Source: a phage
Length of the DNA: 64,000 bases
Strand: one strand, 5' to 3'
Assembly: GCA_036253035.1 (NCBI GenBank)
Contig: GCA_036253035.1_4123.1
Shown: positions 1-58,805 of the stretch, one piece after another
How the letters are laid out: each line of letters begins with the position of its first letter
Numbering within the stretch: the first letter of the stretch is position 1
Notes under the pieces: generated by a model
The model's input: only the letters and a program-made list of their open reading frames with translations
Database searches by the model: none
What the model was told of the DNA's origin: nothing
Translations under genes and position numbers: made by a program

Positions 1-598
1 ATGAACCACCACGGATAGGATGCCCACTACCACTTAAAAAGCTTTTCGGTGTAATATCAAACTCACCAAATTCAGGATCAATAATAGTTACTTTTGTTTT
101 AGTATTAATATAATTAACTTTGCTATAATCAAAATCAATGTCAGATCTCTTTTCTTTTGCTTCTTTAATAAATTGTTCTGTTGTTTTTGTTTTTTTTACA
201 ATATCGTTATTAATAGATCTAGAAGGATGTCCACAACCACTTAAAAAGTTGGTGGGTGTAATATCGAATTCACCATATTCAGGATCAATAATAGTTACTT
301 TTGTTTTAGTATTAATATAATTAACTTTGCTATAATCAAAATCAATGTCAGATCTCTTTTCTTTTGCTTCTTTAATAAATTGTTCTGTTGTTTTTTTAGA
401 TGAACCACCACGGATAGGATGCCCACTACCACTTAAAAAGTGATTGGGTGTAATATCAAACTCACCAAATTCAGGATCAATAATAGTTACTTTTGTAAAA
501 GAATTAATATAATTAACTTTACTATAATCAAAATCAATGTCAGTTCTTTTTTCTTTTGCGTCTTTAATGAATTGTTCAGTTGTTTTTTTAGCTGGCAT
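1..598 (-). CDS. tandem-repeat protein, N-terminal part (three ~65-aa repeats; gene continues past window start)
   Basis: ATG at 598 on minus strand, frame open to position 1; repeat unit FIKxAKEKRxDIDFDYSKVNYINxxTKVTIIDPEFGEFDITP..SGxGHP; resembles nucleic-acid-binding repeat modules found with phage homing endonucleases, Cys mostly lost. Confidence 0.55.
   Translation of the reverse strand, partial: MPAKKTTEQFIKDAKEKRTDIDFDYSKVNYINSFTKVTIIDPEFGEFDITPNHFLSGSGHPIRGGSSKKTTEQFIKEAKEKRSDIDFDYSKVNYINTKTKVTIIDPEYGEFDITPTNFLSGCGHPSRSINNDIVKKTKTTEQFIKEAKEKRSDIDFDYSKVNYINTKTKVTIIDPEFGEFDITPKSFLSGSGHPIRGGS
1..598. repeat. tandem direct repeat, about 3 copies of a ~200 bp unit (coding)
   Basis: near-identical blocks starting near 1, 205 and 400 (e.g. 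ccacttaaaaag...caggatcaataatagttacttttg recurs). Confidence 0.8.
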
Positions 599-648
599 TA
601 ATTAAAAACTCCAATTTAGTACTTTAATTTCTATAAAATAATTATAGC

Positions 649-676
649 AAAAAAGGCTGACCGAAGTCAACCTTTT
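649..676 (-). terminator. rho-independent terminator (GGUUGAC-UUCG-GUCAGCC hairpin + U tract)
   Basis: plus aaaaaaGGCTGACCGAAGTCAACC; on minus strand perfect stem with one G-U pair, UUCG tetraloop, followed by U run. Confidence 0.8.
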
Positions 677-679
677 CCT

Positions 680-1156
680 TTAATAGTTATTCATTTCATC
701 TTTGATTTGTTCTTCAATTTCATTCAACATATCTTTAACGTACTGTGGACATTCAACATCAGTAAACTTATACCACGTAGGCTTCATCTGGAGCTTCTCA
801 ATCAAACGGTCACGAGACATTTTAATCTCTGACTCCGTTGGTACGTAGTCATTACAAAACTCAGCAGGGAAGCCGCTAATGTCGTTTACTTCAGTGTTTT
901 GAATCTTCATACCACGACGCAGACATTCGTTGACAATATCAATATGACGCTTCTGTAAGTACAGTAACTTGTCGTAGAAAAATGTTACATGACCTGAACC
1001 TAACAGATAAGTACTGTTAATTTTGAAATCACGTACACGCTTACGTGCTTGAACGTGTTTTTGTACAGCACCAAATACACGTGGGAGTTCACGATATTCA
1101 GCCATCAGATGTTGGTCAGCAAGTTCTTTAACGTGTACTAAGTTAATGCGTGTCAT
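680..1156 (-). CDS. denV: endonuclease V, pyrimidine-dimer DNA glycosylase
   Basis: 158 aa; [32 protein letters not shown] closely matches T4 DenV as I recall it; RBS AGAGGA. Confidence 0.85.
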
Positions 1157-1191
1157 GTATTCATCCTCTCGTTTCGATGAAATGATTATAG

Positions 1192-1217
1192 CAAAAAGGG
1201 CTGACCGAAGTCAACCC
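1192..1217 (-). terminator. rho-independent terminator, same conserved hairpin
   Basis: GGGCTGACCGAAGTCAACCC flanked by A run (plus); stop codon of 1211..1624 lies inside hairpin. Confidence 0.75.
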
Positions 1218-1624
1218 TTTTTTCTTTCAATCAAACATAGTCTACCAGAATGTACCATGCGATGGTGATTAGAACAAAGAATCATACACTTTCGAATTTC
1301 ATCTTTGATAGCATCTCGACTTTTACTGAACATAGAACTTGGTGTATGTTCTTTGGTATTAGGGTCAAGATGGTGAAAGTCTAAACATTCTGGATACTTC
1401 ATCATACAAATACTACAACCATAAAATGATTTAACTCTGGTCATGAAATCTTTATTTTTTCTTTTGATTTCTTCAAGTTTTTTGACATCAGTTTTTTTAT
1501 TTCTGGTTTTCTTACTGGTAATATTACTACAACCTTTGCATGTATTTCTATGTTTCCCAGTATCTTTTCTTATACCAAATTCACTAATGTCTTTTTCAAT
1601 ATTACACGTGATACACTTCTTCAT
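1211..1624 (-). CDS. HNH endonuclease with N-terminal Cys-rich zinc finger
   Basis: 137 aa; CxxC..CxxC then DFHHLDP..CSNHHRMVH (HNH-type His/Asn pattern). Confidence 0.65.
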   Translation of the reverse strand: MKKCITCNIEKDISEFGIRKDTGKHRNTCKGCSNITSKKTRNKKTDVKKLEEIKRKNKDFMTRVKSFYGCSICMMKYPECLDFHHLDPNTKEHTPSSMFSKSRDAIKDEIRKCMILCSNHHRMVHSGRLCLIERKKG

Positions 1625-1636
1625 TGTTTAATCCAT

Positions 1637-1924
1637 TTATTCAACAATCCCCAACTTCACAATCTCATACCCGTCCAGATAGCCGTAGGAACACTCAGGT
1701 GTTTCATAAGATGAACCATCATGGATGCCCTGGCATTGACTTTTGGAATTCTCAAGCAATCGTTGTAGTACTGATACGTCATCAAGAACGTAATACAAGT
1801 TAGCATATAGGTCAGTTACAATACAGTACTCCAACATATCAAATGTATCAATCGAAATTTCAACCTTAGCAAATCGTTTCTTTTCTTTATTATACAGTGC
1901 GTACATATTAATCTCCATAATCAA
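1637..1924 (-). CDS. hypothetical protein
   Basis: minus ORF 95 aa tiled with neighbours. Confidence 0.5.
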   Translation of the reverse strand: MIMEINMYALYNKEKKRFAKVEISIDTFDMLEYCIVTDLYANLYYVLDDVSVLQRLLENSKSQCQGIHDGSSYETPECSYGYLDGYEIVKLGIVE

Positions 1925-2324
1925 GTTTAACTAACTTACCATTCAGATAACCAAAGTTTTCTGGCTTCGCATCTGAATAAAAGAAGTCAGTACTTAACTC
2001 TGAATTCAATGCTAAAGCACACAACTCCACCCAAAATAAACCCCTATGTTGAACTGGCTTACAACGTTTCTGTACAGTTACTAGTCCAGTACATGATGAC
2101 CACAAAGTAGGACAGATACCAGTATCACTACGATTGGAGTACTGCATCCACGAACGTTCATTGAGGTTAGCTATCATCCCTGTTAAGAATAGCTTCCAAC
2201 TTTTAAAGGTTGGAATCTTGATAGCATATTCCCCAATGAGGATAACAGTTCGTGTTGCACCTTTAAAATCTATATTCATATTTTTAATTAGAAGAACACA
2301 AACCAAGTCCAGAACAAATTCCAC
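1908..2324 (-). CDS. hypothetical protein
   Basis: minus ORF 138 aa. Confidence 0.5.
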   Translation of the reverse strand: MEFVLDLVCVLLIKNMNIDFKGATRTVILIGEYAIKIPTFKSWKLFLTGMIANLNERSWMQYSNRSDTGICPTLWSSCTGLVTVQKRCKPVQHRGLFWVELCALALNSELSTDFFYSDAKPENFGYLNGKLVKLDYGD

Positions 2325-2539
2325 ATTACAAATAAAGACATAGTGGTTTTATGTACGATATCAGCAGTACTGGTCCATCCTCCACCGTGTCCTATTCCAT
2401 TTATGAATAGAACTAAGAACAAGATACCATTTACTACAATAGTACATACTAAGTACACAAATACATTCCATGCAAGTCCAGGGGATACTAAAGTAAATGG
2501 TAAAACTATTAGTAGTATTAGAACTAATAATATTTTCAT
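2288..2539 (-). CDS. small membrane protein
   Basis: 83 aa, two hydrophobic helices (ILLVLILLIVLPF.., GILFLVLFINGIG). Confidence 0.5.
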   Translation of the reverse strand: MKILLVLILLIVLPFTLVSPGLAWNVFVYLVCTIVVNGILFLVLFINGIGHGGGWTSTADIVHKTTMSLFVMWNLFWTWFVFF

Positions 2540-2578
2540 TTATCGCCTCACTTAATTAACGTGACATATCACGTAATA

Positions 2579-2755
2579 TTAGTACGAATCAGATTCCCAG
2601 TACTCGATTGCTTCTTTCAGCAATTCTTTAGCACGTTGTTTTGCAATGCGAGCGGGAAACTGATATGTGTACATTAACTGACGCTTCACTTCATTCAGTG
2701 AAAGCTGTTCATGGTACAGTGCATCCATCAGTCGATTACGAGTACGTAGTTTCAT
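2579..2755 (-). CDS. small hypothetical protein (58 aa), not in ORF track
   Basis: MKLRTRNRLMDALYHEQLSLNEVKRQ..; RBS AAGGA 6 nt upstream of ATG. Confidence 0.45.
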   Translation of the reverse strand: MKLRTRNRLMDALYHEQLSLNEVKRQLMYTYQFPARIAKQRAKELLKEAIEYWESDSY

Positions 2756-2766
2756 ATAAGTTATCC

Positions 2767-3321
2767 TTATTTCAAAGAATCATAGTAAGCAGTGTCAAAG
2801 ATTGGAGTCATAATAACATAGTCAATACGGTCAATGTAAGTTGAACTCCACATTTCTGGTTTGTCATATAACTGACGCTCGCGTTCATTCATACGAGTCA
2901 GTACTTCTTCCAATTTACTACGTGAATCCATCAATGTATTACTCGAACCATAAGTGAAGTACTCAGTCCAATGATATTCATATTCAGTACTGATAGATTG
3001 AATAGTACCATCTTTGAAATGAGCTAAGGCATAACCTTTCTCTACAAAGTTATCAGGTGGAAGAACACCATCTGGATTAGTTTTCAAGGCTTGTGCTAAC
3101 TTTTCTTTAATTTCAGTTAACGTGCATACTGAACGAATGTTCTTCAGGTTTGATACTTGAAAATCACTGTACTTTCCAAAGAAAAAGACACGCCAATCTT
3201 TAGGTTCATTATCAGATACGGTAGCATTAGGATGATGGGCGAGTAAACGAAGAAGGCCAGCTTTATGACCGTTAATGTAGATTTCATGGATGTGGTTAGC
3301 AGTTTTCTTAAAAGTAATCAT
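2767..3321 (-). CDS. hypothetical protein
   Basis: minus ORF 184 aa. Confidence 0.6.
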   Translation of the reverse strand: MITFKKTANHIHEIYINGHKAGLLRLLAHHPNATVSDNEPKDWRVFFFGKYSDFQVSNLKNIRSVCTLTEIKEKLAQALKTNPDGVLPPDNFVEKGYALAHFKDGTIQSISTEYEYHWTEYFTYGSSNTLMDSRSKLEEVLTRMNERERQLYDKPEMWSSTYIDRIDYVIMTPIFDTAYYDSLK

Positions 3322-3369
3322 GGTAGTTCCTCGATTGTAGGGATGAGAAGTTCATCCCCCTTGATAAGC

Positions 3370-3397
3370 ATTATACAGTACTGAATGTGTTTGTCAA
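3370..3397 (-). promoter_or_regulatory. sigma-70-type promoter (TTGACA-16-TATAAT)
   Basis: minus strand GTTGACAaacacattcagtactgTATAATG; spacer contains CAGTACTG. Confidence 0.65.
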
Positions 3398-3398
3398 C

Positions 3399-3794
3399 TC
3401 AAAATAAATTCATTTCATGTGCGTATTGTGGTTCAAGATAAGATAAGTTTTTGAAACTGTCTTTCAATTCCGCAGCATCTACGTACACAGTACCAGGTAC
3501 ATTCCCCATAGTGAAGCCAACCCAAACAGTCATGTTTCCAGTTCCTAAGCGGGGCATTGATAGCGTCCCATCAGGTGAAACATCAAACGCTACACTAAAG
3601 TCATCCGTTACAACTTCCGAACCATTTTCCAGAATAATACAACCACGTTCTTTAAGCTTCTGAATGTGGATAGCAGCCTCTACAGCACGTTTAAAGTTAT
3701 AGTAAGACTCTTTATCCTCAAACATAGATTGTTTAACCAGACGCTTGTTTAGCTCGGTTACTTTGTACATTTGTCGCATTATTTCAACACCCAT
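3399..3794 (-). CDS. hypothetical protein
   Basis: minus ORF 131 aa. Confidence 0.55.
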   Translation of the reverse strand: MGVEIMRQMYKVTELNKRLVKQSMFEDKESYYNFKRAVEAAIHIQKLKERGCIILENGSEVVTDDFSVAFDVSPDGTLSMPRLGTGNMTVWVGFTMGNVPGTVYVDAAELKDSFKNLSYLEPQYAHEMNLF

Positions 3795-4033
3795 AGTGGT
3801 AGGATTTCATATGAACCTGGAGGTGCTGGATTGATAATCTCAGGGTATTCAGTACTGTTAGGATTACCACCAGCATTGAACTCAGCAAGTAATAATTCGA
3901 GTTCATTCCTATCATGTACAACAAACACGCAATATCCAGTTCCTTCTTCAAGAACTGTAGTTGACCCCGCACAATCCCATACGGTATCAATACATAATAA
4001 TTCTTTAGTGTTTTTATTACGCAACGCAAACAT
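3779..4033 (-). CDS. hypothetical protein
   Basis: 84 aa; strong RBS AGGAGA before ATG; preferred over alternate-frame ORF 3784..4086. Confidence 0.55.
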   Translation of the reverse strand: MFALRNKNTKELLCIDTVWDCAGSTTVLEEGTGYCVFVVHDRNELELLLAEFNAGGNPNSTEYPEIINPAPPGSYEILPLWVLK

Positions 4034-4042
4034 ATATGTCTC

Positions 4043-4387
4043 CTATCGATTCGGCATATTCGTTCGTAGTCGCAAGAGAAATTCAACCACTGACCATGTT
4101 GTAATGAAGGCTATATAAGTTGCAAGGAATCCAGTAAGAATAAATGCAACCAGCGTACTACCATTTGGGGAATCAGTTTTAATGCCGATGACACCATCGG
4201 CTACAGTGAAACATGTAGCCATTAATGTGTAACCTACGTACAACACAAAGAAAAACTCATTCTCCATTGAAGGATAGAAACGGTTAAACACTTTATAAAA
4301 TTTAAAGTACAGTAGGATTATACCAACAAAGGCATAGAATGTAAACAGTGTTGTTATAATATATGAGATTAGGTTCAAATTATACAT
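4043..4387 (-). CDS. membrane protein, paralog 1 of 3 (4 predicted TM)
   Basis: ATG at 4387 with GGAG RBS (track ORF starts 4411 at GTG); motifs F(K/R)Y.(V/T)L..R.YP and C-terminal R..NxPE(R/K) shared with next two genes. Confidence 0.6.
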   Translation of the reverse strand: MYNLNLISYIITTLFTFYAFVGIILLYFKFYKVFNRFYPSMENEFFFVLYVGYTLMATCFTVADGVIGIKTDSPNGSTLVAFILTGFLATYIAFITTWSVVEFLLRLRTNMPNR

Positions 4388-4388
4388 A

Positions 4389-4730
4389 TCAACGCTCCGG
4401 TAGATTATCACGTAATGTTTTAATTCGATGATACATTTTCATACCAATATTACCAAAGATACCATATCCAAGTACTAAAATGTATGCAATAAGCATAGTA
4501 ATAATTACTATAGTACCAAAACTATAATGTACACTACTGATACCCATTGTAGTTTCAACGATTATTTGAGAAACTGAAAGAATCAAAAGTACAACTACAA
4601 TTGGATGATTTGGGTACATTCGGTTGAACAACGTTTTGTACTTAAAGAAGCACAGTACTCCACCGAATAAGAAGTAAACAATGTAAATGCAAGCAACAGC
4701 ATAGGCAAACATGTTAGTGTAATAAATCAT
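4389..4730 (-). CDS. membrane protein, paralog 2 of 3
   Basis: 113 aa, hydrophobic, shared motifs as above. Confidence 0.6.
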   Translation of the reverse strand: MIYYTNMFAYAVACIYIVYFLFGGVLCFFKYKTLFNRMYPNHPIVVVLLILSVSQIIVETTMGISSVHYSFGTIVIITMLIAYILVLGYGIFGNIGMKMYHRIKTLRDNLPER

Positions 4731-4739
4731 TACAAATCC

Positions 4740-5078
4740 TTACTTTTCAGGGATATTAGAACGCCATATATCAATGCGATGAACTAGTCCAAAGAACAAC
4801 CATACTGGAACGGCAGCTATCATAACAACAAATGAAAACCCAGTCAAGACCGATACCAGATTTAATTCATCAGTACTATACCCACATATCAGTACTTCTA
4901 ATATTCCCCACGTACATGCACAAAACATCAAGAATGAAATTGGGGCATCATAGTAGATACGTTCATATAAAGTAGTGTATCGGAAGAATGCAATAATGTA
5001 GCAAAACATATAATACACCCAAACCAAAGATACTACATAAAATGATACTTTGTTTATTAATTCAAAATATTGTTCCAT
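4740..5078 (-). CDS. membrane protein, paralog 3 of 3
   Basis: 112 aa, hydrophobic, shared motifs as above. Confidence 0.6.
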   Translation of the reverse strand: MEQYFELINKVSFYVVSLVWVYYMFCYIIAFFRYTTLYERIYYDAPISFLMFCACTWGILEVLICGYSTDELNLVSVLTGFSFVVMIAAVPVWLFFGLVHRIDIWRSNIPEK

Positions 5079-5080
5079 TT

Positions 5081-5362
5081 TTACCCCAATATATATTCAG
5101 AGAGTAATGTATTAGCTTCATCTTTGTTCTTAAGGTAATACATGTAATATAGATTCGGTTCACCATCTTTAGCACTCAAATCGAAGTACTTTAAACTATG
5201 TACTTTCATAGTAAAAACAAATAATGGCTTAAAACCAATCTCACCGTACTTAATAAACAGTTCATCCAAATGAATGTAACTTTTTGATTTGGATAATTCT
5301 TTAACGTCTGCATCAATTTCAGATAAAAGATGCTTACCTATTAAGTTTTCAAATGAACGCAT
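5081..5362 (-). CDS. hypothetical protein
   Basis: minus ORF 93 aa. Confidence 0.5.
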   Translation of the reverse strand: MRSFENLIGKHLLSEIDADVKELSKSKSYIHLDELFIKYGEIGFKPLFVFTMKVHSLKYFDLSAKDGEPNLYYMYYLKNKDEANTLLSEYILG

Positions 5363-5423
5363 GATTTTATCCTTTACCGCAATTTTTATGGTTTATTAAG
5401 AATACACCAGAACATCAGTTCTG

Positions 5424-6065
5424 TCAATAAAAAACTGGATCTTCTTCAGTAACTGGTATTTCTCTACGTACATCACACGAAAGAGGATCAGTAATGAATA
5501 CATTGCCATCTTTATCCATCATGACATTACTGGAATGAATGTCTGGTACAAAACGCCCGTGAAACTCTTTCATGATGTTAGCAGCGACCGTCGCAATAGC
5601 AATCTCTTCAGAATTTCCACGCATATCATTCACTGAAGTAGCGTACTGACCAGCATGTGCATACGAATACAAATCACCAATTTTAGTACTAACAAAGTCA
5701 TCATAATTATTTTTTTGTTTAATTATAGGATAGTACTTGTCCATCTCATACCATCCAAAGTTTCCTTGTTCGTTGGCACTGTAGATCACTGGAAGAAACT
5801 TGGTTCCTGCGTTTTCAATGCAGTACTTTGCATAAGCACGAAAACCATCCCAGCGTGAAGTGGTTACTTTAAATGCACGTCCAGGATAGTTTTTATGTTC
5901 AACTACTACAGAGTACATCCCCATTCCAAGCAAAGTAAGTCCAGCAGCTTTAACTTGTGGAAAGATTACGCGTTCAGCATAAGGAATATCAAACTCCATC
6001 GCACAACGAGTTTTTGATGGACGCAAAATGTCAATTAAAGTTTTGAATATTTCTTGCTTAGTCAT
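5424..6065 (-). CDS. protein-kinase-like fold protein (putative Ser/Thr kinase)
   Basis: Gly-rich loop LGMGMYSVV, AFKV lysine motif, catalytic-loop-like DIHSSNVMMD, ITD; probable start ATG 6065 with AGGA RBS (track start 6098). Confidence 0.5.
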   Translation of the reverse strand: MTKQEIFKTLIDILRPSKTRCAMEFDIPYAERVIFPQVKAAGLTLLGMGMYSVVVEHKNYPGRAFKVTTSRWDGFRAYAKYCIENAGTKFLPVIYSANEQGNFGWYEMDKYYPIIKQKNNYDDFVSTKIGDLYSYAHAGQYATSVNDMRGNSEEIAIATVAANIMKEFHGRFVPDIHSSNVMMDKDGNVFITDPLSCDVRREIPVTEEDPVFY

Positions 6066-6101
6066 TACTTTATCCTCTGTAGTTAATATCAACATCATAA
6101 C

Positions 6102-6126
6102 AAAAAAGGCTGACCGAAGTCAACCC
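6102..6126 (-). terminator. rho-independent terminator, conserved UUCG hairpin
   Basis: aaaaaaGGCTGACCGAAGTCAACC. Confidence 0.8.
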
Positions 6127-6134
6127 TTTTATTA

Positions 6135-6554
6135 TCATTTACAGTTTTCTATAACTATTGCACGTTTTAGTATTTTACTTTCATAAACATACTTAAGATG
6201 ACCTTCTTCACGAATACGATTGAACACATATCCTAGTTTATCTTTTAGTACTGAAGCGGTATCAATGTCAAGATTAACTTCAACCCCTCCTGTTAATTTA
6301 ACTTTATATGTAAAGCTAAAAGCATCACCAGATTCAACCAATGGGACTACTTGTTCATACGTATTCAACATAACTCGTTCATCATTAACTAAATTATATA
6401 TTACAATATCACAAGTTTTTACCCCAATTTCCTCTAAGGTAGGAGCATTGTCTACTATAACATCTTTTACTGTATTAGCAACCTGTTTAGCATCTGCTGC
6501 ATATACATTAAAACTAAGAAGTACTAAAATAATACTTAAAAAAATCTTTTTCAT
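6135..6554 (-). CDS. secreted protein (signal peptide)
   Basis: 139 aa; MKKIFLSIILVLLSFNVYA|AD. Confidence 0.6.
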   Translation of the reverse strand: MKKIFLSIILVLLSFNVYAADAKQVANTVKDVIVDNAPTLEEIGVKTCDIVIYNLVNDERVMLNTYEQVVPLVESGDAFSFTYKVKLTGGVEVNLDIDTASVLKDKLGYVFNRIREEGHLKYVYESKILKRAIVIENCK

Positions 6555-6563
6555 TATATATCC

Positions 6564-6887
6564 TTATTTTATTTTACACGTCATATCGGGTTGTGCTGGT
6601 TTATTATTTTTAAAAGGATTAGGTTTTTTATCTTTCTTTTTATCTTTTAATGGTTTTTTGTCTTCTTTTTTATCTTTGTCTTTTTTATTGGTATCAGATT
6701 CAGTTGGAGTATTACATTGTGCTGGTGATGGGTTTGTTGGGTTACAGCTATTGTCTGGTGGGAGTTTTACTTCTTTACAATTGTAAAATAGTAAACTTTT
6801 ATTTGTGGTTAAATTATGAAAACGATAATTTATTTCATTATTATAATAAATTTTTTTAGTACTTTCAATGTCATTACACATTGCCAC
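6564..6887 (-). CDS. hypothetical Lys/Asp-rich low-complexity protein
   Basis: 107 aa, KDKDKKEDKKP repeats. Confidence 0.4.
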   Translation of the reverse strand: MAMCNDIESTKKIYYNNEINYRFHNLTTNKSLLFYNCKEVKLPPDNSCNPTNPSPAQCNTPTESDTNKKDKDKKEDKKPLKDKKKDKKPNPFKNNKPAQPDMTCKIK

Positions 6888-6891
6888 GGAA

Positions 6892-7143
6892 TCACCGAAA
6901 CTCTTTTTCTATTCCGAGTACATCCGTCTTACGCTCAGATAGTATACCTGAAGTATATGAATCTTTGTTGTCAAACGCATTAAATCCAATAGTTCTGTCG
7001 GTGTCGTGTATTATTCCTTTTGTGTATGAGGTAGTATAGAACTCCCCATTTCTGAAATCCTGCCTTGCTACGGAGCAATGATAATCTGCACCATAAGCAG
7101 TACTGGAAAATAATACAATTCCAAATATAATATATTTTTTCAT
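6892..7143 (-). CDS. secreted protein (signal peptide)
   Basis: 83 aa; MKKYIIFGIVLFSSTAYGA. Confidence 0.55.
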   Translation of the reverse strand: MKKYIIFGIVLFSSTAYGADYHCSVARQDFRNGEFYTTSYTKGIIHDTDRTIGFNAFDNKDSYTSGILSERKTDVLGIEKEFR

Positions 7144-7177
7144 TGTAATCCTCTTCTTAATTCCTCTTTTGTATTTA

Positions 7178-7202
7178 CAAAAAAAGGCTGACCGAAGTCA
7201 AC
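7178..7202 (-). terminator. rho-independent terminator, conserved UUCG hairpin
   Basis: aaaaaaaGGCTGACCGAAGTCAACC. Confidence 0.8.
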
Positions 7203-7213
7203 CTTTAGTTTTA

Positions 7214-8767
7214 TCATTTACCGTATTTGCTCATGATGTCCTTTTCCCAATGAGTTACGTTACCGTTATCGTAATCTTTAAAGGAATTATCAAGAGTAGT
7301 TAATGCATATTCGTATGCTTCAGGTGATTCAATGTCAACATCATCAGCACCATTTACTAAATCAGTCCATGCTTTTTGTAGTTTACGAGCATTTTTACCA
7401 ACATTACTTTTAATCCAACTAATGTTTTTGTTGATACTCTTATTATCAGCACCAGCTTTTTTACCAATATCGGATATCCACATCATTAGCTTTTGGAGTT
7501 CATGAATGGAGTTGTCGTTCATTTCACGATCTTTAGCCAATTCTGCTTCCATGCCATCAGTATCAGTACCATCTTTAGAACCTACATCAATTCCATGTTT
7601 AGCTAATAGTTTACCAAGTTCAAAGAATGCTGCCTCAGCAGGGAAGTCATAACCTTTGTCTTTGTAGTTGTTCCATGCACTATCAAACTCATCTACAAAT
7701 CGGTTGGCATAATCTGGATTGTCCACGAGAGCTTTGTACACTGCCATTGCATGTTCAAATCCTTCTTTGTCAGAACCAAACTCTCCCATTTCTGGACGAT
7801 GAATGTAACCATCCATATCAACAGTATCAGGTAAATCATCATGAGATGTTTCAGCATCTTTCTGGTCAACTGCACCTTCTTCATCATCACGCATCAGATA
7901 ACCATCTCGTGTAACCTTCTCACCGTGATCAGCTTCATACTTTTTCATAGTATTGAATGCAGCATCCATTGCAGTTACAAAACGACTCTTTTCACCTTGT
8001 ACATAAGATTTAAGTGCATCGTTAACTGCATCAGATACTAATTTAATCTTATCGTCTTTACCTTCCAGACGGTTTTCTAACTTAGCTAGTACATTCTTAA
8101 CTTGTTGAGCATTAGCACGGTCTTCTTTACCAATACTATCAAATGTTTTAAGTACGCTTTCAAGACTTACTTCCTCTTGTGCAGGCACATCACCTTGTTG
8201 CGTACCTTCAAGTGCACGCATTATAGTACTGAATACTTCAGTTGGTTCAGTACTGGTATTTCCACTCATTGCATCAAGTACAGCTTGTGCTTTGACTTTT
8301 AATTCTTCTTTAGGTACAGATTGCAATTCTTTCACAATACCTTGGATAAGTTGTGGTTTATTAGCAAAAATCTTACCTAACTTATCAGACAATTCTTTGA
8401 CAGGGTTAACCGCCTTTGGTGCTTCTTGTTTTGGTTCTTCTTTCGCAGGAGAAGACTTTTCTTTTTCTTCACGTTCCATATCAGCTAGGCGTTGTTTTTG
8501 TGTAGCATTAAGAAGTCCCAATGAATTAACATAACGTAGCTTTTCTAGCTCAGTCATGTTCTCAGTACTCTTAACTTCACCTGCTTCTGCGTTTGCTTTA
8601 CCAGCTAGACCAGTTCCTTGGTTACGTGATCCACGTGAACCTTGACCTGCTTGATAACTATTTGGTCGGCGGTTGCGTTCACTCCATTTATCCGAGTGAC
8701 CAGCCATGTTACCACCATTTTTATCAGTAAAATTACTTGGCATTTGATTTCTCTCCATAGATTTCAT
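7214..8767 (-). CDS. large hydrophilic protein, unknown function
   Basis: 517 aa, acidic/coiled; shares KYLxSLGLL motif with 9014..9397; TATAAATA-like motif about 25 nt upstream. Confidence 0.7.
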   Translation of the reverse strand: MKSMERNQMPSNFTDKNGGNMAGHSDKWSERNRRPNSYQAGQGSRGSRNQGTGLAGKANAEAGEVKSTENMTELEKLRYVNSLGLLNATQKQRLADMEREEKEKSSPAKEEPKQEAPKAVNPVKELSDKLGKIFANKPQLIQGIVKELQSVPKEELKVKAQAVLDAMSGNTSTEPTEVFSTIMRALEGTQQGDVPAQEEVSLESVLKTFDSIGKEDRANAQQVKNVLAKLENRLEGKDDKIKLVSDAVNDALKSYVQGEKSRFVTAMDAAFNTMKKYEADHGEKVTRDGYLMRDDEEGAVDQKDAETSHDDLPDTVDMDGYIHRPEMGEFGSDKEGFEHAMAVYKALVDNPDYANRFVDEFDSAWNNYKDKGYDFPAEAAFFELGKLLAKHGIDVGSKDGTDTDGMEAELAKDREMNDNSIHELQKLMMWISDIGKKAGADNKSINKNISWIKSNVGKNARKLQKAWTDLVNGADDVDIESPEAYEYALTTLDNSFKDYDNGNVTHWEKDIMSKYGK

Positions 8768-8798
8768 TTTTTTCTCTATGTCTATATTTATAGTATAA

Positions 8799-8822
8799 AG
8801 AAAAGGCTGACCGAAGTCAACC
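8799..8822 (-). terminator. rho-independent terminator, conserved UUCG hairpin
   Basis: gaaaaGGCTGACCGAAGTCAACC. Confidence 0.75.
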
Positions 8823-8830
8823 TTATTTTG

Positions 8831-8944
8831 TTACTTAGATTGTTCTTGTGCAGGTGGATTTACTTTTTGATCCACTACATAGAATACACCACCAACCAGT
8901 ACTGCGGCGATGAGTGCAGCAACTACAAATTTCAAACCTTGCAT
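8831..8944 (-). CDS. small membrane peptide (37 aa), not in ORF track
   Basis: MQGLKFVVAALIAAVLVGGVFYVVDQK..; RBS GAGGT; bracketed by two terminators. Confidence 0.45.
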   Translation of the reverse strand: MQGLKFVVAALIAAVLVGGVFYVVDQKVNPPAQEQSK

Positions 8945-8980
8945 ATATGATACCTCAGTTATATTGAGAAGTTATGATAC

Positions 8981-9006
8981 AACAAAGGGCTGACCTTAGT
9001 CAACCC
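8981..9006 (-). terminator. rho-independent terminator, variant of conserved hairpin
   Basis: GGGCTGACCTTAGTCAACCCC with flanking A/T runs. Confidence 0.7.
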
Positions 9007-9013
9007 CTTTTTA

Positions 9014-9397
9014 TTACTTCTTGAACTTATGTTTTTCACTTTCGATTGCATTCACGATTTCATCATGAATTTTACGAAGATTGTGAGTTTTCTTGAGAGA
9101 ATCATGCAATGCACGGAATGCAGAGTGTACTGTTGCTTTAAAGTGCTCTTTAGGAGTTACTTTAAGTTTCTCGATAATATCACGTACATAGATTGGGTGA
9201 TCCTCAAACACACGATTAAGCTCATGACCTAGTGATTCTAGGCTAAATGCTTTTTCACGGGATGGACGATCATGTGCAAGACTTTGGTCCGGTTTTAGAA
9301 GACCTAGTGAATCTAGATACTTGTGCTTATGTGCATTGTCTAGACCAGAAATATCAACATCATGTGATGGATCTTTCTTATTCCATTTATCAACCAT
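9014..9397 (-). CDS. hypothetical protein sharing N-terminal motif with 517-aa protein
   Basis: 127 aa; KYLDSLGLLKPDQ. Confidence 0.6.
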   Translation of the reverse strand: MVDKWNKKDPSHDVDISGLDNAHKHKYLDSLGLLKPDQSLAHDRPSREKAFSLESLGHELNRVFEDHPIYVRDIIEKLKVTPKEHFKATVHSAFRALHDSLKKTHNLRKIHDEIVNAIESEKHKFKK

Positions 9398-9475
9398 TTT
9401 TATAACTCCTATAAGAGATAAATTTTACTATAATATTTATAGTTCCGTTGTCATTTATATCGAATGACATAAAAC

Positions 9476-9503
9476 ATTATATCATAATAAGAATGGTTGT
9501 CCC
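9476..9503 (-). promoter_or_regulatory. promoter, extended -10 (TGaTATAAT) with weak -35
   Basis: minus GGGACA-16-TATAAT preceded by TG; upstream of 9014..9397. Confidence 0.4.
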
Positions 9504-9512
9504 AAAGTTAAA

Positions 9513-9956
9513 TTAGTACTGATCAAGTTCAGATGTAAAAATGAATGCATCCATGTCTTCCAACGTAAGTTTTAAGTCTGGTACATACTTAAGAATAACG
9601 CACTCTGGCTTCTTAATAGCAGCTTGATAAGCAGCAATGGCAAGGGATTCCAACTGCTGTGCTGTATAATTTTTACGTTCTGCATTAAAAACTTTGTTTT
9701 TGATATCACCACCTGGGAGTTTTTCAAACTCACGCATAACTGCGGCAAGAACATCGTCGGCAGTGTTACTATATACCCATTGGGGTAATTGCATTACATT
9801 ATAAATCACACCACTATCATCCATCAAAGAGATCCATTTATATCCATCACTCGCACTGAACAAACGCCCTTTTAGTACTGTATTATTGGTTAAATTTACA
9901 AATGCAAAAATATCTTGTTCGTTAAGTTCAATACTATTAACATTTACCCAACTCAT
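9513..9956 (-). CDS. hypothetical protein
   Basis: minus ORF 147 aa. Confidence 0.55.
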   Translation of the reverse strand: MSWVNVNSIELNEQDIFAFVNLTNNTVLKGRLFSASDGYKWISLMDDSGVIYNVMQLPQWVYSNTADDVLAAVMREFEKLPGGDIKNKVFNAERKNYTAQQLESLAIAAYQAAIKKPECVILKYVPDLKLTLEDMDAFIFTSELDQY

Positions 9957-9969
9957 TACGATTCCCTAT

Positions 9970-10566
9970 TCATAAATCACGAACAATATTCATTAAACAC
10001 AATTTAGGCTTTATAGCATTCAAAACCCATATGCACTCTTTGTAAGTAGCTATTATATCATCTAAATGCTCAGTCACAATACTTTCTTGAAAATATTCTT
10101 CATCATTGAGCTTTGCTAATTTAGTAACATCACATGTAGGTACTATAGGTCTGGATTGTACACCCATGCCATTATTAATATTAGTAAAATGTACAAAATT
10201 GTATTTCACTACACCTTTATCTAGATTTACTATACATGACAAGTTTTCCAACTCAGTTAGTTCTTTACTACAAGTAACATTAATGAAACCAGTATTATAG
10301 GCTCTATAATCATCTACTGATATCTCAAAATCATTACGCTGAAATATAAGTGAAATGAGTTTGTCCAGTGGTTTTACATTCATATATTTTAATGAATTTA
10401 CGTATGATACTTCAATCTTAGATGAAATTATTTTTTTACTAAGTGCAGTTAATTCTTTGTTAGATTTAACTGTTAAAACAATAGGTTTAAACCTAGAACT
10501 TTTGTTCTTTTTTGATACTTTAAAACGACCTTTACGATTCATAATTTCCTCAATTAATAATTTCAC
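9970..10566 (-). CDS. hypothetical protein
   Basis: minus ORF 198 aa. Confidence 0.6.
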   Translation of the reverse strand: MKLLIEEIMNRKGRFKVSKKNKSSRFKPIVLTVKSNKELTALSKKIISSKIEVSYVNSLKYMNVKPLDKLISLIFQRNDFEISVDDYRAYNTGFINVTCSKELTELENLSCIVNLDKGVVKYNFVHFTNINNGMGVQSRPIVPTCDVTKLAKLNDEEYFQESIVTEHLDDIIATYKECIWVLNAIKPKLCLMNIVRDL

Positions 10567-10771
10567 ATTTAACGTGTGGTTTATATAACATAATTAACCC
10601 ATTTTTAAGTACAATGATTGTTCCTCGGTCAGTAATAGAAACGTTTTTAATTATACTTTTTTTATATGTTTCAACATATTTCTCTTCGTAATTTATACAT
10701 TTAACATATTCTTTTTGTTTAGCACTTACAACAGTACTGAATAATATCAGTACAAGTACTATATATTTCAT
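10550..10771 (-). CDS. small secreted protein
   Basis: 73 aa; signal peptide MKYIVLVLILFSTVVSA. Confidence 0.5.
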   Translation of the reverse strand: MKYIVLVLILFSTVVSAKQKEYVKCINYEEKYVETYKKSIIKNVSITDRGTIIVLKNGLIMLYKPHVKCEIIN

Positions 10772-10823
10772 TACTATACCTTATAAACAAAAAGGAATTC
10801 ATTTAAGAATTCCTATTTTACAA

Positions 10824-11117
10824 TCATTTATCTAACATACCATTGTGTAAACGTTCATATACTTCAGTTCGACGCAAATTCACAATATCTTCTGCGTATT
10901 TTAATGTAAATGCCCATGCTTTTGGATGTACGTTAAGCTTCATACGAATTCGATTTTTCATCAACTCTCCACTTAAACGAATAAATTCGTGTACACCACG
11001 ACTACCGTATTCAGTAATTAAATCATTAATGTACATATCACGAAGAGTTTCATCTGCACATTCTTTAACCATTTCTACGTCAGCGACGATGCTTTCATTA
11101 ACTGAAGTACTGATCAT
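10824..11117 (-). CDS. hypothetical protein
   Basis: minus ORF 97 aa. Confidence 0.5.
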   Translation of the reverse strand: MISTSVNESIVADVEMVKECADETLRDMYINDLITEYGSRGVHEFIRLSGELMKNRIRMKLNVHPKAWAFTLKYAEDIVNLRRTEVYERLHNGMLDK

Positions 11118-11129
11118 TTTTAATTTACC

Positions 11130-11396
11130 TTATTTAAATTCGACTGTAATTTTATCACCTTCAACTACGAACTTACAGTTGTAGCGACGTGCCATATCCA
11201 TGTACATATGCTCAGAGTACCAAGGAACATCAATAATCGGATGCTCTGCGTATTGTAGAACTTCACGGTCGCCCACTGTAGTAATGATGAAAGGAATGTT
11301 CATCTCTCGTAAAAACAGTTCAGCACCAGGAGAACGATTAATAAATTCAGTATCATTACGTAAAGTAAATCCATTATATTGTAATTTAAGCTTCAT
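11130..11396 (-). CDS. hypothetical protein
   Basis: minus ORF 88 aa. Confidence 0.5.
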   Translation of the reverse strand: MKLKLQYNGFTLRNDTEFINRSPGAELFLREMNIPFIITTVGDREVLQYAEHPIIDVPWYSEHMYMDMARRYNCKFVVEGDKITVEFK

Positions 11397-11410
11397 ATGT
11401 TATCCTCTAT

Positions 11411-11755
11411 TCAATACCATTCTTTAAAACCATTAAGTTCGGCTATGTGAGTAATTATAACACATATAACATTCAGGTCAAGTATAATTTGATCATAATT
11501 TAATTTTATACGATCATCATTATATGCCCTAAAGACTACATCGTAATCAAAGAAATTTGCGTTTTCATCATTCATTGAAACGATTCGGTATCTACGTCTT
11601 CCATCTGTATTGAATATTGTTAAACACTGTTGAAACTTTCTCATTAACTGTTTAGATAGGATATTATAATATTCAATATCTTTTTGTGAATTACGTGGGT
11701 CATCAGGAAGATAGAATGAAACAAATTTCTTTAATTCTATTTGAGTTTTATCCAT
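11411..11755 (-). CDS. hypothetical protein
   Basis: minus ORF 114 aa. Confidence 0.5.
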   Translation of the reverse strand: MDKTQIELKKFVSFYLPDDPRNSQKDIEYYNILSKQLMRKFQQCLTIFNTDGRRRYRIVSMNDENANFFDYDVVFRAYNDDRIKLNYDQIILDLNVICVIITHIAELNGFKEWY

Positions 11756-12188
11756 ATATTACCTCATGTGTTTCTCTTTTACTTTGTCGGAACTCATCCT
11801 TTGCTTCCTTAACTGACATGATACGAACTAATTTAGCACTACCGCAATAGTACTGAACCTGATTACGACCAATGTCTACATGGTGGTCTGGAACTTCATA
11901 TACAGATATAGCAAACCCAGCACGATGCAATTTACCTAAGTCCATAGTGAAGAATCTGAACAAATCTTTCAAACTTTGACAGCCAAATACCCATCCACTT
12001 TTGATTGAATAGATCCCATCCTCAGTTGGTTCAGGTTGGAATTGAGAAGGTGTAGTCATGAGCAAACGGTCAAATCCATTTTTAGTACTGTATCTGGTTG
12101 AATACCGTGCAAACGGACCTACAGTTCGTGCAGGATCTAAGTTAGGTTCAATGTAACTAAATTTAAGTTCAAAACGATATACATACAT
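11748..12188 (-). CDS. hypothetical protein
   Basis: minus ORF 146 aa. Confidence 0.55.
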   Translation of the reverse strand: MYVYRFELKFSYIEPNLDPARTVGPFARYSTRYSTKNGFDRLLMTTPSQFQPEPTEDGIYSIKSGWVFGCQSLKDLFRFFTMDLGKLHRAGFAISVYEVPDHHVDIGRNQVQYYCGSAKLVRIMSVKEAKDEFRQSKRETHEVIYG

Positions 12189-12224
12189 AATTAAAATCCT
12201 CTAATTTATTAAGAGAATTATAAC

Positions 12225-12248
12225 AAAAAAGGCTGACCGAAGTCAACC
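12225..12248 (-). terminator. rho-independent terminator, conserved UUCG hairpin
   Basis: aaaaaaGGCTGACCGAAGTCAACC; stop codon of 12243..12434 embedded in hairpin. Confidence 0.75.
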
Positions 12249-12434
12249 TTTGTTTTGAAGTTCTTGAACTAATTGTCGTACTTCGTTAATATTATTACAC
12301 TGCTTTACAGTGAAGTAATCATACTTACGACCATAGGTTCTTGGGTCATCACCTTCCATATACTGCTGCACATCAAAGATTTGTAAGTAGGGATGCTGCA
12401 TAACACGAATATTTTCACTTTGATAAATCAACAT
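12243..12434 (-). CDS. hypothetical protein
   Basis: track ORF 12243..12488; internal ATG 12434 avoids overlap with upstream gene. Confidence 0.45.
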   Translation of the reverse strand: MLIYQSENIRVMQHPYLQIFDVQQYMEGDDPRTYGRKYDYFTVKQCNNINEVRQLVQELQNKG

Positions 12435-12438
12435 AATA

Positions 12439-12789
12439 TCAATCCTTATATTTACACAAGCCACCAAAACTAGTTTCTTTAGCACCACGACGCATCATAA
12501 CTAATTTAGCATATTGTGTACCATTACTATCTTCATATACATCTACTTCAATAAACGCTAAGAAGTTAGGGTCTGTGTCGTTAGAAAACTCAGTGAAGCT
12601 AATGTCGCCTACTGTATGCTCTTTAACAAACGTATATGATTGTCCATCAATATATACAATATCTCGATCGTCACTATCACCTTGATAGATATGTTTAATA
12701 TTACCATCTGTACAAACTAAACCTTCCAATGGTTCAGCATATGACAATCCACACATTAACATACATACAAAAAATAAAATAATTTTCAT
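12439..12789 (-). CDS. secreted protein (signal peptide)
   Basis: 116 aa; MKIILFFVCMLMCGLSYA|EP. Confidence 0.55.
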   Translation of the reverse strand: MKIILFFVCMLMCGLSYAEPLEGLVCTDGNIKHIYQGDSDDRDIVYIDGQSYTFVKEHTVGDISFTEFSNDTDPNFLAFIEVDVYEDSNGTQYAKLVMMRRGAKETSFGGLCKYKD

Positions 12790-12791
12790 GA

Positions 12792-13169
12792 TTATTTTCC
12801 TCCAACGTTAAGTGATTTCTTGTACTGATATTCTTTATAAGTACTATACCATATATCACCAACGTAAATCAAGTACCACGTAGCAGGATAAAGAGCCAAT
12901 CCAGTACTGATGTATACGAACTTTTGGTCAAGGACATCAAATACATGCAGAAGGAAAGTTACTCCCATAATGCAAGAACAAATTAACCATAAGTTATAAG
13001 CCATTGAATCGCAAGCAAAAATAGAATCAAGCTTAGAAATTAGGACATATTTGTTTGTTAAAATAAAATGAATTACTGCAACTAAACAATATCCTGCCAT
13101 AAAAATAGAAATTAAAAAAGACAGAATAATTGGAATATTCAACAACAAAAGTAAAATAGTGTTTACCAT
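12792..13169 (-). CDS. membrane protein
   Basis: 125 aa, multiple hydrophobic helices. Confidence 0.55.
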   Translation of the reverse strand: MVNTILLLLLNIPIILSFLISIFMAGYCLVAVIHFILTNKYVLISKLDSIFACDSMAYNLWLICSCIMGVTFLLHVFDVLDQKFVYISTGLALYPATWYLIYVGDIWYSTYKEYQYKKSLNVGGK

Positions 13170-17951: not shown

Positions 17952-17980
17952 ATTATACTGCTATTATTCAGTACTGTCAA
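17952..17980 (-). promoter_or_regulatory. sigma-70-type promoter (TTGACA-17-TATAAT)
   Basis: minus TTGACAgtactgaataatagcagTATAATG. Confidence 0.65.
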
Positions 17981-19755: not shown

Positions 19756-20721
19756 TTAGAAATCTTCGTATTCGTACCCTTTTGCAAGTACTAGCTTCTT
19801 AAGCTTTTGCATAGCTTCACTGTACTTTCGATGTATTGATGAACGGGATTTAACATATTTTCCATTATCATCAACAAAACCATTATCAGCAATCTCACGA
19901 AGCGTTTCAGGTTCATATTCACCTAGACCATGAACACGATGGATAATCTCACGTTCTTTAGTACTCAATTCGTTAGTCAGTTCATTGATAGCATAACGTA
20001 AAGGTGCACGAATACTATCAACATTGAGGTTAAAATCAGAAGCAGGTGAATGAATAATGTCACCTAGTGTACCATCGGTAACACCGTCTAATGGTGCATC
20101 CAGAGAAGTGTATTCGCTTTGAAATAACAAACAGTTATTAACATGCTGAATCTCAATCCCAGTACCCTCTGAGATTATTTCAGGAGTTGGGCGAACACCA
20201 TGTTTACGCATATATTCCTGGCAGAATCTTTTTACTTTGATCTTATGAACACTCATATAACGTGGGAAGTGTACCATATAGTTAGCGTCAGAACTTTCGT
20301 TATAAACTGTCATGTAAATACTAGAAGAAGCATAGGTAATGAACTTAACATTCTTATTAAGATCAAAGGTTTTTAGTGCTCTCATGAACCCCTCAACACC
20401 ATATGAAATCTTATCTTCAAATGGGATATAACAAGTACATTTACTTGCTACATCAATAATAAGTCCATAATTGTAACGAACTAACAGTTCAGTGTTTTTC
20501 TTTACATTGATACCAGCTTGAATATCACGAATTAGATCTTCATTGGAAACATTTGGTGGTCGCTTAAGTGTAATATTATATTTGAAACTGCTTTGTACTT
20601 TACCTTCATTTTCATCTTTATCTTCAACGAAATCTAAGGCTTCTAGTGTGTTGACTTCTTCATTAGCAAAACATTCATCCAGAACTTCTTCGGCAATTGT
20701 ATTTAAATCAAGCTTTTTCAC
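19756..20721 (-). CDS. RNA polymerase sigma factor, sigma-70 family
   Basis: 321 aa, GTG start with AGGAGA RBS; region 2 EGFMRALKTFDLNKNVKFITYA and region 4-like TLREIAD..SRSSIHRKYSEAMQKLKK. Confidence 0.7.
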   Translation of the reverse strand: MKKLDLNTIAEEVLDECFANEEVNTLEALDFVEDKDENEGKVQSSFKYNITLKRPPNVSNEDLIRDIQAGINVKKNTELLVRYNYGLIIDVASKCTCYIPFEDKISYGVEGFMRALKTFDLNKNVKFITYASSSIYMTVYNESSDANYMVHFPRYMSVHKIKVKRFCQEYMRKHGVRPTPEIISEGTGIEIQHVNNCLLFQSEYTSLDAPLDGVTDGTLGDIIHSPASDFNLNVDSIRAPLRYAINELTNELSTKEREIIHRVHGLGEYEPETLREIADNGFVDDNGKYVKSRSSIHRKYSEAMQKLKKLVLAKGYEYEDF

Positions 20722-56280: not shown

Positions 56281-56300
56281 AAGTTAGTTCCTTATCTGTA

Positions 56301-56345
56301 CATTAAAAAGAGTGCGTTTTCAATAAGATTATATTAAAAACGCAC
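56301..56345 (-). terminator. long hairpin terminator overlapping next promoter
   Basis: GAGTGCGTTTT..AAAACGCACTC (11-bp stem). Confidence 0.5.
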
Positions 56346-58709: not shown

Positions 58710-58805
58710 TATAAAACCTCATAATCAATTAAAATTTACGCTATGGTGATATTGTACATACTTCGACTACACATGTCAACACCTGAAAAGAAAAAAGGAC
58801 GCACC

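Follow-up and report, generated by a model that had tools for sequence, protein, structure and literature searches.

A recurrent UUCG-loop hairpin as a candidate terminator-promoter cassette in an Asteriusvirus jumbo phage

Can one short sequence end one transcription unit and begin the next? The closest described systems are the promoter-early stem-loops (PeSLs) of the T4-type phages RB49/phi1, T4/PST and KVP40/nt-1 (Arbiol et al. 2010, PMC2839356; Comeau et al. 2014, PMC4122927). For the RB49/phi1 PeSLs, promoter and terminator activity as well as mini-circles were shown experimentally, and the crossover was mapped in the loop (PMC2839356). For the hairpins of the RaK2-like clade of jumbo phages, the CBB paper gives ARNold terminator predictions (Table S8); Torf39, Torf515, Torf518 and Torf520 are entered in its terminator table and are absent from its promoter table, and promoters and terminators are not discussed in the RaK2 paper. 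A literature search for the sequence string of the hairpin found nothing relevant, and in the literature searched the hairpins of this clade are described as terminators alone. Here we analyze a hairpin that recurs seven times in a stretch of phage DNA of 64,000 nucleotides (contig GCA_036253035.1_4123.1; this whole stretch is referred to as the window). We propose, with a probability of roughly 0.78, that each copy is a dual-coded cassette of ~45 nt in which a putative terminator and a putative promoter share the same bases between co-oriented genes of the minus strand.

The window is Asteriusvirus DNA, not that of a T4-type (Straboviridae) phage, the original hosts of PeSLs. Positions 622-13000 share 96-98.6% identity with the Asteriusvirus jumbo coliphages SHEFM2K, slurp01, G17, 121Q and PBECO4, and related genomes number ~67. 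Genomes of these relatives (the 121Q/PBECO4/G17 group) are ~350 kb in length, and the GC content of the window genome is 33%.

Anatomy and conservation of the repeated hairpin

The 18-mer GGTTGACTTCGGTCAGCC (GGTTGAC-TTCG-GTCAGCC) has six exact matches in the window, at 655-672, 1199-1216, 6108-6125, 7186-7203, 8805-8822 and 12231-12248; a seventh copy at 8988-9005 has two mismatches and the loop TAAG. All seven are on the minus strand. The number expected by chance is 0.02, and none of 100 shuffled sequences contained seven or more. A looser pattern (TTGAC-N3-8-GTCA) applied to all 64 kb revealed no extra copy, which leaves seven copies in 12 kb (span 655-12248) versus none in the remaining ~51 kb. 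Between 0.6 and 13 kb, the motif fills seven of the 12 intergenic spacers longer than 20 nt. The original prediction of a terminator hairpin repeated almost verbatim was borne out at the same sites; its intervals are those of the 18-mer plus the flanking A/T runs, with one of them (7178-7202) off by 1 nt. The direction in which the RNA had been read was also right, since every gene in the copy-bearing part of the window is on the minus strand, and so was the claim that two genes have their stop codon within the stem. Open reading frame (ORF) 1211-1624 ends AAG GGT TGA and ORF 12243-12434 ends AAA GGT TGA, the stop being in both instances the TGA of GGTTGAC. In the G17 record, the orthologue of ORF 12243-12434 (coding sequence G17_00122) is annotated as ending within an ARNold-predicted terminator.

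As RNA, the 18-mer forms the pairs G-C, G-C, U.G, U-A, G-C, A-U and C-G around a UUCG loop, and A/U pairs flanking the 18-mer lengthen the stem. The fold of the sense RNA is -14 to -20 kcal/mol (z -4 to -5.6) and that of the antisense RNA is -9 to -14 kcal/mol, the latter being weaker because the U3.G16 wobble turns into a C.A mismatch on the other strand. The copies have the features expected of an intrinsic terminator, namely a position after a stop codon and a GC-rich hairpin that leads into a U-tract on the transcribed strand, and the terminators that ARNold calls in the G17 record (-13.5 to -17 kcal/mol) fall on the same sites. A scan of 1-14 kb against Rfam at a permissive E-value gave sub-threshold chance matches alone (for example, MicX at 26 bits versus a gathering score of 75). 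The terminator reading of the original prediction stands with respect to the hairpin and U-tract, as a T-run follows each copy and the sense-RNA fold is stable; it is incomplete in that the same 18-mer holds a -35 box and has a -10 box downstream.

This -35 box, the sigma-70-type hexamer TTGACT, lies in the 5' arm of the stem, and the 3' arm and T-run fall within the spacer of 17-18 nt that separates it from the -10 box. With the exception of copy 4 (copies are numbered 1 to 7 by increasing coordinate), the window copies carry -35 and -10 boxes at the ~17 nt spacing typical of PeSLs (six of seven). A promoter scan identified TTGACT-18-TATAAT with TG in copies 1, 2 and 7, at 11 of 12 matches, and promoters with 10 of 12 matches in copies 3, 5 and 6. 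All seven copies are intergenic and co-oriented with the genes, each is followed by a GAGG-type Shine-Dalgarno (SD) sequence and an ATG, and the elements are arranged in the order stop codon, A-run, hairpin, T-run, G(C/T)TATAAT-like box, ~25 nt, GAGG and ATG. A similar arrangement is found when exact 18-mers from IMG/VR (39 stretches, 55 matches) are combined with those of the relatives to give 62 distinct contexts: a -10 box lies 17-18 nt past TTGACT in 54 of them, and TGn precedes the -10 box in 47. Under a stricter definition, a strong -10 box at spacer 17 or 18 occurs in 55 of 74 contexts, versus a background of 2.8% after T-rich runs (p~6e-69, a value that overstates independence since the 74 contexts include orthologues, the effect itself not being marginal). 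An SD sequence and ATG follow in 62 of the 74 contexts, at a median of 43 nt, and a stop-like triplet is found 0-12 nt ahead of the hairpin in 72; for copies 2 and 7 it is within the hairpin.

The promoter boxes are not all of one kind. Exact TATAAATA boxes occur only twice on the minus strand of the 64 kb, at 9441-9434 and at 8792-8785, and they are directly upstream of two genes annotated as virion-structural (9014-9397 and 7214-8767, respectively), whose surroundings otherwise look early. The late-type boxes that follow copies 4 and 5 agree with the late motif described for CBB and GAP32. Thus, the hairpin is combined with more than one promoter class. In total, the window contains 33 strong sigma-70-like promoters, all on the minus strand. 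The phage encodes an RpoD-like sigma factor of the sigma-70 family (19765-20721, minus strand; 35% identity to fHe-Yen9-03 g503, E 5e-63), which could read these promoters besides host sigma-70. The sigma factor gene is itself surrounded by strong promoters of the sigma-70 type.

Is the sequence held by its structure as RNA, by its -35 box, or by both? In the 62 distinct contexts, the first pair flanking the 18-mer covaries in the manner of paired RNA bases (GC 48, AT 8, GT 3, TA 1, CG 1). When up to three mismatches to the 18-mer were allowed, 25 distinct 18-mers were recovered in 112 contexts. The 5' arm is near-invariant across these 25, almost all of which retain seven of seven pairs. The variant loops are mostly other stable tetraloops (UAAG, UCCG, UACG, UUCA and GUAA), the variation in the 3' arm consists of transitions giving G.U pairs, and a double compensatory change is seen once (GATTGAC/GTCAGTC). 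Pair-preserving changes in the 3' arm outnumber those in the 5' arm by 21:1, where 5:3 is expected (p=5e-4); selection on the sense-RNA structure, together with a second constraint on the 5' arm as a -35 box, would be expected to give this pattern. The earlier suggestion of selection for one very stable structure is thus supported by the C(UUCG)G loop and by the pairing kept in the variants. We also considered whether the wobble in GTCAGCC is there to remove a TTGAC -35 box from the antisense strand and retain the idea as speculation only: the perfect GTCAACC is present at orthologous sites in WPEC5 and 121Q, which leaves at most a preference. The wobble form is ~10 times commoner than the perfect GTCAACC in IMG/VR (39 versus 5 stretches).

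We propose that, as RNA, (A)nGGUUGAC-UUCG-GUCAGCC(U)4-7 would act as an intrinsic terminator on transcripts that come in from upstream and leave them with a hairpin at the 3' end. Read as duplex DNA, these bases would constitute a sigma-70-type promoter in which TTGACT is the -35 box and the remainder of the loop, the 3' arm and the T-run are the spacer; TGnTATAAT would come next, and the SD sequence and ATG would come ~25-30 nt further. Transcription would halt and restart at one spot, making each gene or small group of genes an insulated unit. Furthermore, with ~35-40 nt in common and a cassette layout, the elements would provide recurrent borders for gene gain, loss and replacement, as has been proposed for PeSLs.

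Distribution, cassette borders and rival explanations

The search of related phages that accompanied the original prediction was carried out and found the motif at about 5-10 places in each related genome; in 121Q, seven of eight are in one ~20 kb stretch. The core is retained at orthologous sites even where the flanks have diverged. The module, with a -10 box or late box at the same offset, is present in jumbo phages of Klebsiella (K64-1, RaK2), Cronobacter, Pectobacterium (CBB), Yersinia, Serratia and Erwinia, and it is found in all RaK2-like genera. Likewise, it occurs in Xanthomonas phage XbC2 (Mimasvirus), Aeromonas phage 65 (Straboviridae), KVP40-like Vibrio phages and Cronobacter phage CR9 (Vequintavirinae). 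In 596 Gb of bacterial genomes, the exact 18-mer gave 50 scattered single matches, where roughly 17 would be estimated by chance; a general bacterial element, or one borrowed from the host, is ruled out by such scattered single matches. At six of the viral loci, including those of 121Q and Xanthomonas phage XbC2, the hairpin-promoter is followed by a conserved ~50-nt segment (...ggcagata..gc..ctaacccatagggtgc...) with no SD sequence or ATG. This segment may represent a small RNA transcribed from the hairpin-promoter; a search for it in the window found no copy.

What keeps the copies uniform? The original prediction had offered recent spread by recombination, and this does not fit an 18-mer that is identical at orthologous sites despite an overall identity of ~85% (WPEC5) and is present in other genera and families. 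Judged from these comparisons, the uniformity is old and maintained, not the result of recent spread within this genome. The most likely cause, we infer, is overlapping constraint, or dual coding. The -35 box would fix the 5' arm and base pairing would fix the 3' arm; C(UUCG)G would be the most stable loop while also giving the sixth base of the -35 hexamer; and promoter spacing of 17-18 nt would leave room for a U-tract of only 4-7 nt. A broader reading is possible, and we hold it tentatively, as something short of probable. The 18 nt may be triple-coded (terminator stem, -35 box and, at times, stop codon) and shared verbatim by at least three lineages of large lytic myoviruses, namely RaK2-like jumbo phages, Straboviridae and Vequintavirinae, with enterobacteria, Vibrio, Aeromonas and Xanthomonas as hosts. 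The module would have been exchanged horizontally or would represent a convergent optimum, and it would be a directional, portable insulator that went unnoticed as it was annotated as a terminator only. As part of this broader reading, the conserved G.U wobble would yield a strong hairpin in the sense RNA only and a -35 box on one strand only, and the module would let new genes plug into early regions.

How do close relatives differ around the copies? Junctions were located by blastn versus six relatives and then by base-by-base inspection. At the copy 1 site, G17 and 121Q have endoV, a half hairpin (GGTTGACTTCGGT joined to tacaca), two genes and a full copy; in the window, endoV is joined straight to the full copy, without the two genes. 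The half and full hairpins therefore point to a crossover inside the hairpin, as mapped for the RB49 PeSL mini-circles. At copy 2, a 400-bp HNH gene is inserted flush with the hairpin; G17 and 121Q lack this gene, and SHEFM2K and WPEC5 retain decayed remnants of it. At copy 4, three distinct upstream sequences (that of the window, that of SD-15 and that of 121Q/WPEC5) abut the same hairpin. At copy 5, WPEC5 has two additional genes ending at the 5' edge of the hairpin, and at copy 6, UB has a different gene in place of everything beyond the 3' edge. Five of 23 junction clusters are within 25 bp of a hairpin, versus 0.88 expected under uniform placement (P=0.002). Read from these alignments, the hairpins appear to be recurrent borders of cassettes at which genes are gained, lost or swapped. 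Recombination would use the elements as borders, and the identity of the copies is not explained by it. In SHEFM2K (8816-9229 of locus L043) and WPEC5, an extra gene of ~414 bp is found at window position ~5385, in a spacer that contains the promoter at ~5427-5399 and no hairpin.

What else could the repeats be? One alternative is a terminator and nothing more, reused from gene to gene, with the TTGAC and TATAAT-like boxes arising incidentally, from the AT-richness of the genome and from a separate promoter of the gene that follows. It agrees with ARNold and with a local scan, which call these sites terminators, with the published G17 and CBB annotations, which give terminators alone, with the 33% GC of the genome and with copy 4, which has no sigma-70 -10 box. 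However, the -10 box is at a fixed 17-18 nt from TTGACT far more often than in the background (55/74 versus 2.8%), TGn accompanies it in 47/62, and the 5' arm is far more conserved than the 3' arm even against pairing-neutral change (21:1, p=5e-4); a terminator alone would have no need of TTGAC in particular. We consider this alternative unlikely. Less likely still is a DNA operator, at which a dimeric phage or host protein would bind the palindrome over the -35 box and shut the promoters after the early phase. An inverted repeat over a -35 box is classic operator geometry, the copies cluster in an early-type region, and an operator would be compatible with terminator function. Yet the repeat is imperfect as DNA (T3 is opposite G16), its variants lose DNA symmetry and keep RNA G.U pairs, and the perfect palindrome with GTCAACC is the ~10-fold rarer form in viral contigs. 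In addition, the loop favors stable RNA tetraloops (UUCG, UACG, UCCG and GUAA), the hairpin always leads into a U-tract and is lengthened by the flanking A/U pairs, and no candidate binding protein was identified.

We give the lowest probability to a mobile or recombinogenic repeat, resembling a miniature inverted-repeat transposable element or the site of a recombinase or homing endonuclease, for which any regulation would be secondary. The cassette junctions at hairpin edges, the half hairpin, the HNH gene inserted directly against copy 2 and the identical 18-mer in unrelated phage families are what such a repeat would predict. It is opposed by the lack of terminal inverted repeats past the stem, of target-site duplications and of an associated transposase or recombinase; by the modest number of copies (about 5-10 per 350 kb genome) and the stability of their orthologous positions among relatives; by junctions no more frequent than at other intergenic spacers; and by the regulatory nature of the features that are conserved.

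Besides the orthologues among the 74 contexts, several observations weigh against the dual-coded cassette that we favor. Copy 4 lacks a sigma-70 -10 box, and copy 6 combines a poor U-tract (CUUUGUUG) with the weaker -10 box TATCAT. The spacer is mostly 18 nt and the -35 box is TTGACT rather than TTGACA, so that promoter strength depends on TGn. Host sigma-70 may not be the reader, given the RpoD-like sigma factor of the phage. Junctions are present at five of seven motif spacers and at two of five other intergenic spacers, which is not a significant enrichment (Fisher p=0.56), and the hairpins may be borders merely through sitting at gene boundaries. Finally, termination, initiation, the sigma factor used and the mechanism of recombination are proposals drawn from sequence, and transcript ends for the clade would be predictions.

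Copies, neighboring genes and predicted transcription units

Read in the direction of transcription, the copies would divide this part of the window into nine units; all of the copies and genes described below are on the minus strand. Unit 1 would enter from upstream of copy 7, extend up to ORF 12243-12434 and end at copy 7 (12217-12252; hairpin 12231-12248, -10 box TATAAT at 12217-12222 with TGt), where the in-stem TGA at 12245-12243 is the stop codon of this ORF. Unit 2 would consist of four genes transcribed from the copy 7 promoter, which is predicted to drive ORF 11748-12188, and would end at a different hairpin at ~10814-10793. From below that hairpin, unit 3 would include ORFs 10550-10771, 9970-10566 and 9513-9956 and the structural gene 9014-9397, the last with its own TATAAATA box at 9441, and it would end at copy 6. 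This variant copy (8974-9010; hairpin 8988-9005 with loop UAAG, -10 box TATCAT at 8974-8979) comes after the structural-protein gene 9014-9397, and its promoter would give rise to unit 4, a 37-codon ORF (8831-8944, the orthologue of G17_00113) that forms a one-gene cassette flanked by copies 6 and 5. Copy 5 (8785-8826; hairpin 8805-8822, -10 box TATACT at 8792-8797, spacer 17) has an exact T4-late-type TATAAATA box at 8792-8785 that overlaps the -10 box. It is upstream of the virion structural gene 7214-8767 (ATG 8767), which would be unit 5 and would end at copy 4.

Copy 4 (7172-7207; hairpin 7186-7203, a run of seven T and the late-type box gTAAATAc at 7177-7172) is located between the virion structural gene upstream and ORF 6892-7143 downstream. 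Unit 6 would extend from it through three small ORFs to copy 3 (6094-6129; hairpin 6108-6125, -10 box TATGAT at 6094-6099 with TGt). The copy 3 promoter is predicted to drive the T7 gp0.7-like protein kinase gene, and unit 7 would comprise this gene, about 14 small genes and then the HNH gene, with internal promoters at ~5427 and ~3397 and its end at copy 2. The start of the longest ORF for the kinase, ATG 6098, falls within the copy 3 -10 box; the true start is likely ATG 6065-6063, after the SD sequence agagga, as annotated in G17, and the 121Q and RefSeq annotations use the longer form. Copy 2 (1185-1221; hairpin 1199-1216, -35 box 1209-1214, -10 box TATAAT at 1185-1190 with TGc) lies directly downstream of the gene for a free-standing HNH endonuclease (1211-1624; phrog_2255, E 2.9e-32), whose stop codon is the in-stem TGA at 1213-1211. 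It is predicted to drive endoV (680-1156), which would be unit 8 and would end at copy 1. Following the endoV stop codon, copy 1 (641-676) comprises the A-run 673-676, the hairpin 655-672 with the -35 box TTGACT at 665-670, the T-run 649-654 and, at 641-646, the -10 box TATAAT preceded by TGc. Its promoter would drive unit 9, a repeat-containing gene that has its ATG at 598-596 and runs off the edge of the window, beyond which the unit would end.

The genes neighboring the motif copies are mostly hypothetical. Among the ORFs flanking the copies, Pfam identified endoV alone, and the HNH gene was identified through PHROGs. The gene at window positions 1-598 is composed of tandem repeats of ~190 bp (about 1-190, 190-400 and 400-600). 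It is missing from most Asteriusvirus relatives, whose homology begins at ~622, right at copy 1; WPEC5 contains many diverged copies of the repeat (1450-4311 of locus L046) under DUF4379 and endonuclease annotations. A second promoter class was noted on the minus strand at 3397, 14019, 18328 and 33936, with a variant at 17980. In these promoters, the palindrome CAGTACTG is directly upstream of the -10 box (cagtactgTATAATg), the -35 box is a perfect TTGACA and the spacer is 16-17 nt; the palindrome may be an operator or a shared spacer motif.

Comparison with described systems

If the cassette reading is true, it corrects the terminator-only annotation that 121Q-like and RaK2-like jumbo phages carry at these sites, resolves an early region of mostly unknown genes into its transcription units, and extends the PeSL idea of insulated, exchangeable gene cassettes past the T4-type phages. 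For phage engineering and synthetic biology, the ~45-nt element would supply an off-the-shelf insulator with terminator and promoter in one, and it would also be a clean natural example of overlapping codes freezing a sequence.

Two simpler kinds of element resemble the two halves of the cassette. Like Rho-independent terminators with UUCG tetraloops, each copy has a GC-clamped 7-bp stem with added A:U pairs, a C(UUCG)G loop and a tail of 4-7 U. Ordinary terminators, however, are individually diverse and have no promoter, whereas the copies here repeat a single sequence whose 5' arm is held as a -35 box. Extended -10 sigma-70 promoters and the early promoters of the T4 family serve large lytic phages whose early transcription depends on the RNA polymerase of the host. 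The copies share with them TTGAC(T/A), a 17-18 nt spacer, TGnTATAAT and an upstream A-rich tract; they differ in that the spacer is mostly 18 nt and wholly terminator sequence, and in that the phage has its own RpoD-like sigma factor.

The likeness to PeSLs extends to the composite as a whole. Both are intergenic and combine a stop codon, an AT-rich run, sigma-70-like -35 and -10 boxes, a stem-loop terminator, an SD sequence and an ATG, and both recur, clustered within a hyperplastic region rich in small ORFan genes where close relatives differ by indels and replacements. Similarly, the PmSLs of nt-1, in which a stem-loop is joined to other promoter classes, are comparable to the copies with late-type boxes (4 and 5). 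More classic PeSL placements are also present in the window on the minus strand. At 58790-58830, a terminator hairpin of -20.8 kcal/mol is ~12 nt upstream of the TTGACA -35 box at 58779, and at 56290-56345, a hairpin of -23 kcal/mol holds in its loop the TATAAT of promoter 56356 and is followed by UUUUU.

The differences are equally specific. The host is an Asteriusvirus jumbo phage of the RaK2-like clade, not a member of the Straboviridae, and the stem matches neither the G(n)-loop-C(n) of RB49 nor the A3-4G3...C3T3-4 of nt-1. Here the -35 hexamer is itself the 5' arm, giving complete overlap of terminator and promoter; the stop codon can sit in the stem; and the 18-nt core is the same from copy to copy and from genus to genus, in contrast to the looser consensus of published PeSLs. 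The function of PeSLs is known from experiment and that of the present hairpin is a prediction. With these likenesses and differences, the hairpin would best be filed as a PeSL-type composite terminator-promoter cassette that is especially compact and conserved.

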